Shown piece by piece: positions 20,273-21,121 of a stretch of DNA of 30,734 nucleotides (positions within the stretch are counted from its first letter, which is position 1; each line of letters starts with the position of its first letter). The position numbers and the translations under genes are program-made. Origin of the DNA: a virus (Duplodnaviria > Heunggongvirae > Uroviricota > Caudoviricetes); the IMG/VR virus record IMGVR_UViG_2879765931_000001, one strand, 5' to 3'. The notes under the pieces were generated by a model that was not told the origin of the DNA, did no database searches, and saw only the letters and a program-made list of their open reading frames with translations.

Positions 20273-20902
20273 TCAGCCCCGGCTGGATCCAGTCATCAGG
20301 CTCTTTCTTAAAGGGGGAGTATTGAAATCACGAAGAAGAGCCTCCCGCACCGCAGCATCCATGTCTGCACCACTGGCAAGTGCTTCAATCTCTGCCGCCA
20401 CCTGCAAATACCCCATGCAACGGCCAATGCGTTTCATAACTCTGGTGTTTTCGTCTTTCAGGCATCTGATAGCGAGATTAATAATTTTCAGGCAGTGATG
20501 ATGCGATGCCCGGACAGGTTTTCCGTTCTCATAAACGACGAACTCACCCTCTTCACAGGAAACCCTGAAAGGCCGATGGGGTTCCTGGTCTTTATCCGGT
20601 GCAGACGCAATAAAATCACTTTTATGCTCTTCCTCTCCGGCACCGTTAACCGTAATGACGTACTCAGGCCGCAGGTAAGCCGCCTCTTTTTCTGACAATG
20701 CGGCCGGTAAAAACTTTTCCTGCAAAAACTTCATAAAAGTCTCGTGAGCGACTTTGTGGCAGTAATCGTAAATCGCCGCATAATGCTCATCGCGGCGTTT
20801 GTTTTCATCTTCAGAACTCACCAACGCCGACAATTTTTTATTAAGCTCAGTGATTTCATTTTCCAGGTGATTGAATCGCTGATTCATTTCTTCATGCTTC
20901 AT
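20273..20902 (-). CDS. Hypothetical 209-aa protein, translationally coupled to holin S and occupying the endolysin position
   Basis: ATG at 20902 lies 3 nt after the S stop with GGGGAGAG RBS; N-terminal coiled-coil-like segment; no resemblance to lysozyme, SAR endolysin or spanins that I can recognise. Confidence 0.6.
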   Translation of the reverse strand: MKHEEMNQRFNHLENEITELNKKLSALVSSEDENKRRDEHYAAIYDYCHKVAHETFMKFLQEKFLPAALSEKEAAYLRPEYVITVNGAGEEEHKSDFIASAPDKDQEPHRPFRVSCEEGEFVVYENGKPVRASHHHCLKIINLAIRCLKDENTRVMKRIGRCMGYLQVAAEIEALASGADMDAAVREALLRDFNTPPLRKSLMTGSSRG

Positions 20903-20905
20903 TAT

Positions 20906-21121
20906 TTACTCTCCCCGTGCAGCCTTACGCTTGTCTTCTCTTATTTTGAAATACAGATTCGTCAGATAAGTCAGAAGCCCCAGAAGCAGACTTCCCAGCA
21001 CACCAATCGCAGCCCACTGTGATGGCCTGACCTGATCCAACCACTGCAAAAACCAGTAGCCGGCACTGCCGGCGGAGGTGCCGTAGGCAATGCCCGTTGA
21101 AATTTTGTCCATGGATTTCAT
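20906..21121 (-). CDS. S: Phage 21-type pinholin S (S21/EssD-like), dual-start motif MKSM
   Basis: 71 aa [31 protein letters not shown]...[15 protein letters not shown], near-identical to my memory of S21; strong GGAGGTGA RBS. Confidence 0.9.

Follow-up and report, generated by a model that had tools for sequence, protein, structure and literature searches.

Gene content of the lysis region and its surroundings

We analysed a 30,734-nt virus record (IMG/VR IMGVR_UViG_2879765931_000001), hereafter the window, in which a holin gene is followed by a 209-aa open reading frame (ORF) (Table 1). The holin ORF matched PF04971 (phage 21 holin S) in Pfam at 119.6 bits against a cutoff of 26, matched PHROG holin families as well, and showed 94.4% identity to phage 21 S. 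Its N-terminus, MKSMDK, places Met1 and Met4 as a dual start, and the phage 21 record carries annotations for both an antiholin and a holin on the stretch homologous to the window holin. The dual-start motif of the window gene is one from which a holin and an antiholin product are predicted, and GGAGGTGAGG lies directly 5' of the first ATG. These results bear out the S21-type pinholin, with its dual start and ribosome-binding site, that the original prediction had placed here.

Table 1 Positions of the lysis-region features in the window and the evidence used to assign them.
Feature	Position	Strand	Evidence
Head decoration gene, next after the protease remnant	19481-19828	minus	Colinear with the head genes of CFSAN029787
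S49 head protease/scaffold gene, 3' remnant, 97 codons	19865-20155	minus	96.3% identity, colinear with the head genes of CFSAN029787
SAR endolysin gene stub: 20 authentic codons (MSAKIKYGLSAAVLALIAAG, 20147-20207), then 7 foreign codons and a stop	20124-20207	minus	Full lysozyme in relatives
Deletion junction, 9-bp microhomology CCGCAGGCG	20147-20155		BLAST pieces, both parental sequences
Ancestral frame of the lost tail, FKKEPDDWIQPGLTYLKRRI, stop 20250-20252, now out of frame	20250-20312	minus	Read from the sequence, matches the family tail
209-aa accessory ORF, coiled coil and conserved C-terminal domain; frameshifted allele of a 217-aa protein	20273-20902	minus	PHROG 1085, homologues, CFSAN029787 CDS
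C5 run, one base missing relative to homologues (frameshift site)	20313-20317	minus	DNA and protein alignments
Phage-21-type class II pinholin, 71 aa, MKSM start	20906-21121	minus	PF04971, PHROG holin families, identity to phage 21 S
Four tRNA genes between Q and holin: Met/Ile2-CAT, Arg-TCT, Thr-TGT, Gly-TCC	21414-21724	minus	ARAGORN; cluster annotated in CFSAN029787
Late-gene antiterminator Q (ORF limits; annotated homologue 126 aa)	21924-22340	minus	Pfam Phage_antitermQ, E=5.8e-54; annotated in CFSAN029787

The start codon of the 209-aa ORF follows the holin stop at a distance of 3 nt (TAA ATA ATG), and the ribosome-binding site of the ORF, GGGGAGAG, sits within the last holin codons. Because of this spacing and the position of the ribosome-binding site inside the holin gene, the protein is likely to be translationally coupled to the holin, in which case it would be made only once Q turns on late transcription. 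A consensus scan of the flanks of the ORF detected no promoter or terminator motifs on its own strand, which, together with the 3-nt spacing, leads us to expect expression only with the late genes.

Near the N-terminus of the encoded protein, helices are predicted at residues 3-27 and 31-64; the protein contains 5 Cys and 10 His and has a pI of 6.1. Its GRAVY value is -0.63, and the Kyte-Doolittle maximum over 19 residues reaches only 0.76, which argues for a soluble protein without a membrane segment. No lysozyme, spanin or holin profile of Pfam or PHROGs matched it, and a muralytic domain (for example PF00959) was sought in Pfam, PHROGs and NCBIfam with no match; by hydropathy, the N-terminus lacks a SAR or signal segment. 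The spanin pair Rz/Rz1 has no counterpart in this ORF, which gave no Phage_lysis-type profile match and contains no hydrophobic segment. The features that the original prediction had described for the ORF, namely the 3-nt spacing with its own ribosome-binding site, the coiled-coil N-terminus and the Cys/His content, are thus all present.

Several observations concern the rest of the prophage. Lying between Q and the holin, the tRNA cluster would be on the late transcript; its CAT tRNA is assigned to Ile by RefSeq and to Met by ARAGORN. Just outside the tail-fibre end of the prophage, a 587-aa IpaH-type effector (window 1060-2823, plus strand) combines type III secretion LRR and NEL E3-ligase domains, and its presence beside the prophage indicates a Shigella or EIEC host. 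An IS1 element occupies the major capsid gene (window ~18002-18765, InsB-like ORF 18251-18754 on the plus strand); the capsid flanks are colinear with the prophage of E. coli CFSAN029787, with a short duplicated overlap at the insertion site. Neither the J tail tip gene (window 5723-9203, minus strand) nor the tape-measure gene (window 11578-14347, minus strand) is in one piece: J consists of a 912-aa and a 255-aa ORF, the tape-measure gene of a 635-aa and a 276-aa ORF, and these splits look like further frameshifts or stops. At the other end, window 27972-30734 carries NinB, then IS3-family transposase ORFs (28932-30136, minus strand) and a phage integrase fragment (plus strand) at the window end. 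The match to the prophage of CFSAN029787 ends at ~27092, which suggests a second rearrangement or a mosaic boundary.

Intact relatives and the deletion junction

The prophage of E. coli CFSAN029787 carries, in order, Q, four tRNAs, the holin, an ORF of the same length (630 nt), a lysozyme gene (534 nt), Rz, ParDE, KilA-N, terminase, portal and the S49 protease. Within this prophage (locus L001, 10332-10866), the ParD/ParE toxin-antitoxin and KilA-N genes lie between Rz and terminase, and all of them are part of what the window has lost. The prophage of Shigella flexneri SFBU1023 matches window 20147-24902 at 99.98% identity, beyond which it encodes a complete lysozyme of 180 aa; it reads holin, 209-aa ORF, full endolysin, Rz. 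A scan of genome contigs confirmed only three loci, as the first sequence alone served for confirmation. The layout recurs in inducible Stx2 phages: the Stx2a phage 12E129 and the O157:H7 strain E32511 have a class II holin, a homologue of the 209-aa ORF, an endolysin and Rz, with the homologue, which is of the stand-alone form in both and has 213 aa in phage 12E129, starting 3 nt past the holin stop. The same 3-nt gap was seen in all stand-alone copies from E. coli or Shigella that were inspected, and two loci carrying a YdfR form have a gap of 4 nt.

More distant members are placed differently. A Salmonella diarizonae prophage carries its homologue between Q and the holin, on the upstream side of the latter and with an opposite-strand gene separating the two, and on a metagenomic contig a homologue lies near a GH108 endolysin. 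From these two placements, we infer that the family keeps to the Q-proximal late or lysis region without being bound to one holin type.

A partner SAR endolysin is encoded downstream of the holin in the relatives, whereas the window holds only a stub of 20 codons (20147-20207). Its ATG is at 20207, 65 nt downstream of the 209-aa ORF (ATGAGCGCAAAAATC... / ATGAGCGCAAAAATCAAATACGGCCTG..., encoding MSAKIKYGLSAAVLALIAAG), and the 61 nt of the stub correspond to the N-terminal SAR segment of the lysozyme that is found at full length in near-identical prophages. Similarity to both relatives, CFSAN029787 and SFBU1023, ends at window 20147. Since the stub matches the full lysozyme of the relatives up to exactly this break, the endolysin has been deleted and not replaced. 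The original prediction of an unknown ORF standing "instead of an endolysin" is therefore not sustained. Nor is the ORF a fusion artefact of the deletion, as a CDS of the same length precedes an intact endolysin in the relatives. The earlier alternative of a moron left behind by the adjacent deletion is the correct one, given the stub at the junction and this same ORF between holin and full endolysin elsewhere.

At the junction, the BLAST matches from the two sides share 9 nt (20147-20155), and CCGCAGGCG is found at the breakpoints of both parental genes, the endolysin and the head protease. Starting at 20155, the sequence runs through the protease remnant into the genes for head decoration and major capsid, colinear with the CFSAN029787 prophage and 92-99.6% identical to it. 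Relative to that prophage, the window lacks ~8.6 kb (391148 to 382539 of the record), comprising R from codon 21 onwards, Rz/Rz1, ParDE, KilA-N, both terminase subunits, head-tail joining, portal and most of the protease. On this sequence evidence, the 8.6-kb loss is a microhomology-mediated deletion. The intact ancestor carried S, the accessory gene, the SAR endolysin R, Rz/Rz1, ParDE, KilA-N, terminase, portal and protease in this order; illegitimate recombination between the two 9-bp CCGCAGGCG repeats then excised ~8.6 kb, beginning with codon 21 of the endolysin and sparing the last 97 codons of the protease, and left the pinholin and accessory gene without an endolysin. The junction was absent from all 5,426 complete E. 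coli genomes searched and from the S. flexneri SFBU1023 relative. As that 99.98%-identical prophage keeps R and no E. coli genome shares the junction, the loss of the endolysin is recent and specific to this lineage.

The accessory protein family and the decay of its genes

The 209-aa protein matched PHROG 1085 (long YdfR-type, function unknown) with E=9.9e-74, its residues 1-209 aligning to positions 117-288 of the 296-position profile, and it keeps the family motif GRCMGYLQVAAEIEA. The original prediction had described a protein matching no recognisable lysozyme, SAR endolysin or spanin. Profile searches upheld this and assigned the ORF to this family; the accessory gene is thus catalogued (PHROG 1085) yet uncharacterised. 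Scans of the ORF and its relatives against Pfam, NCBIfam and PADLOC yielded nothing beyond coiled-coil noise below threshold, and no PADLOC defence-system profile matched the window protein or its intact 217-aa relative P0002 at E<=1. Literature searches brought up no paper on the gene of the 209-aa ORF and a single functional study of YdfR.

Among 5.8 billion proteins searched, 132 homologues were recovered, and all source names given for the matches listed were E. coli or Shigella; an exhaustive profile search of 1.84 billion representatives clustered at 50% identity returned only 42 family members. A profile of the C-terminal domain added a protein of Salmonella enterica subsp. diarizonae and a few proteins from metagenome assemblies. 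Judged from these matches, the accessory gene belongs to a small modular family that is confined to enterobacterial prophages.

Alignment resolved three modules: DUF1327/YdfR, a coiled coil, and a C-terminal domain of ~110 aa. The DUF1327/YdfR module occurs in forms of 287-333 aa (PF07041, E=1e-41 to 1e-45), and many homologues are fused behind it; the window protein gave no match to PF07041 even at E<=1. The coiled coil corresponds to window residues ~3-64 and is also common to PHROG 2091 proteins. The alpha/beta C-terminal domain carries the motif KRxGRCMGxLQVAAEIEA...PPFKxxPxxWIxPGxxYLKxRI, with near-invariant residues H136, G160-R161, L166-Q167, A169, E171, P197, K199, W205, P208-G209 and Y212, and its conservation persists down to ~30% identity. 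Stand-alone forms consisting of coiled coil and C-terminal domain measure 185-221 aa and have their own conserved start, MNHEEMNQRF... When four orthologues were compared in pairs, dN/dS was 0.23-0.42, indicating that intact family members are under purifying selection.

We used AF2 to model the fold. The model of the window protein reached a pLDDT of 53, too poor for use. For the intact relative P0002, which had a more diverse alignment, pLDDT was 71.7 overall and ~80-90 for residues 110-217. With the whole P0002 model as query, no significant structural neighbours of its C-terminal domain that might hint at a function were found in the PDB or BFVD, although a search with the entire model may miss a distant fold match. 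When the C-domain alignment was compared with PDB sequences, the best match was a PhoU homologue with an E-value of 0.028, which is not credible.

The window copy of the gene carries a frameshift. A 1-nt deletion in a C-run puts the last 12 codons of the 209-aa ORF out of frame relative to the family, and the window protein ends in ...PPLRKSLMTGSSRG, whereas nearly all homologues end in ...PPFKKxPxxWIxPGLxYLKxRI; the conserved tail PPFKxxPxxWIxPGxxYLKxRI is absent, with LRKSLMTGSSRG in its place. The frameshifted allele is present in the S. flexneri relative and in CFSAN029787, where the CDS likewise has 630 nt, and five other E. coli genomes with matches of at least 99% probably carry it too. 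As the allele is common to S. flexneri and E. coli genomes, the frameshift may be tolerated and not inactivating. For the window copy, we consider the protein probably inert, since the deletion replaces a near-invariant tail and the cassette around it can no longer lyse the cell.

Near-full-length copies are rare beyond these alleles. Among the E. coli genomes, 1,066 had any match, and only 79 of the 1,066 had a near-full-length copy; a 165-nt 3' remnant alone was found in many of the matching genomes sampled down the ranking. Among phage records, an S21-type holin was present in 438, and any match to the 209-aa ORF in only 20. From these counts, together with the frameshifted and truncated copies, we conclude that the accessory gene is dispensable and often eroded. 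Decayed copies are widespread in E. coli genomes, for example at loci L014 (1135-1725) and L010 (1657-2263), and include a truncated long YdfR gene with a 165-nt 3' remnant, not annotated, directly before the lysozyme gene, as well as a copy annotated as frameshifted. In strain 222, the remnant lies behind a truncated long YdfR gene; at the short YdfR locus L012, no fossil of the C-terminal domain was found.

Interpretation and comparison with known systems

We are largely confident that the region belongs to a defective lambdoid prophage from a Shigella- or EIEC-type host and forms the promoter-proximal end of its late operon, with a lysis cassette cut by deletion plus a late accessory protein. 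The holin and the 209-aa ORF are an ordinary degraded lysis cassette, a case of prophage decay and not a new two-gene module. The accessory protein would be non-essential and cytoplasmic, would oligomerise via its coiled coil, and would act late in lytic growth.

Two other accounts of the pair have to be set against prophage decay. The original prediction had raised a domesticated toxin or abortive-infection module, that is, a pinholin and partner kept by the host after the rest of the cassette was lost. A pinholin is able to depolarise the membrane by itself, as established for phage 21 S, and the holin ORF, its dual start, Q and the expected late promoter region between Q and the tRNAs are all uninterrupted in the window; but the pair is the intact ancestral order minus its later genes, the partner ORF is frameshifted, and no PADLOC defence-system profile was matched. 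The junction, moreover, recurs in none of the 5,426 E. coli genomes, the S. flexneri prophage at 99.98% identity keeps R, and neighbouring prophage genes are decaying too (capsid interrupted by IS1, J and tape measure each in two ORFs). Domestication thus finds no support here, and we regard it as highly improbable. It is also improbable, if less so, that the 209-aa ORF is what remains, as a pseudogene, of a longer YdfR-family gene and was never functional alone. The stand-alone forms of 185-221 aa, with their own conserved start, are found in many independent prophages, among them deposited genomes of Stx2-converting phages, and evolve under purifying selection (dN/dS 0.23-0.42), all of which speaks against a remnant; in its favour are the 81% identity to the closest long form (P0004, 333 aa) over the shared part, the frequency of decayed long forms, and the frameshift at the 3' end of the window copy. 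We therefore retain an accessory gene in a decaying lysis cassette as the preferred reading.

For the function of the accessory protein, our tentative preference is that it shares a pathway with YdfR, an RNase E binder and its frequent fusion partner, although we would not call this likely. YdfR binds the RNase E catalytic half through its N-terminal 72 residues and also co-purifies with RNA (PMC13232886); its overproduction caused little transcriptome change (PMC13232886). Counting against a shared pathway, the window protein lacks DUF1327, the domain that contacts RNase E. This mechanism stands slightly ahead of modulation of pinholin timing, which is nearly as likely and itself doubtful. 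A cytoplasmic timing regulator would bind the cytoplasmic part of the pinholin and tune the time of depolarisation, in the manner of T4 RIII or P1 LydB. The constant gap after the holin stop in the inspected copies (3 nt in stand-alone and 4 nt in YdfR forms), the soluble, coiled-coil nature of the protein, and the position of distant homologues, which still adjoin lysis genes of other types, are consistent with such a role. The protein shows no similarity to any lysis-category PHROG (E<=0.1), however, and is absent from most S21-type cassettes, that of phage 21 included. In Salmonella diarizonae, the homologue is upstream of the holin and uncoupled from it, with the opposite-strand gene in between, which weakens any holin-specific role, and proximity to lysis genes is weak evidence because the region past Q is a general hotspot for accessory genes.

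For the window itself, these results carry little significance, as prophage decay (microhomology deletion, frameshift and IS1 insertion) accounts for the odd pair. Of wider, if modest, interest is the family, which is conserved, under purifying selection and of unmatched fold, and which is encoded right after the pinholin in some E. coli prophages; its members include proteins of the Stx2 phages of O157:H7, where toxin release depends on lysis timing. It is conceivable, although unlikely, that the C-terminal domain, for which no relative in sequence or fold was detected beyond enterobacterial prophages, marks a new class of regulator that is cytoplasmic, acts in the late phase and is co-expressed with the pinholin of lambdoid and Shiga-toxin phages. 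If so, lysis and toxin-release timing could be set via the pinholin, or host RNase E could be redirected together with YdfR-type domains, and the Shigella allele would be a natural tail-less variant.

Compared with known systems, the window cassette resembles that of phage 21 (S21, the SAR endolysin R21 and Rz/Rz1): the holin is 94.4% identical with the same dual start, and a SAR-type lysozyme and Rz follow downstream in the intact relatives. It differs in having an extra gene between S and R and in having lost Rz and R beyond codon 20. T4 RIII and P1 LydB are cytoplasmic regulators acting on their holins. The window protein, as far as its sequence goes, is likewise a soluble protein encoded beside a holin gene, but it shares no similarity with any lysis-category PHROG. 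Lambdoid late-region morons found between Q and S (stx, nanS-p, DUF1378, DUF826) resemble the accessory gene in being non-essential, patchy and Q-proximal in lambdoid and Stx prophages, whereas for the accessory gene the consensus scan detected no flanking promoter or terminator motif on its own strand, and the gene starts 3 nt past the holin stop. YdfR of the E. coli K-12 Qin prophage (DUF1327, PF07041) sits, like the accessory gene, between a class II holin and a lysozyme; the window protein lacks DUF1327, the reported RNase E-binding part (PMC13232886), and K-12 YdfR lacks the C-terminal domain. The long YdfR family (PHROG 1085, 287-333 aa) carries the coiled coil and a C-terminal region of ~190 aa homologous to the window protein.
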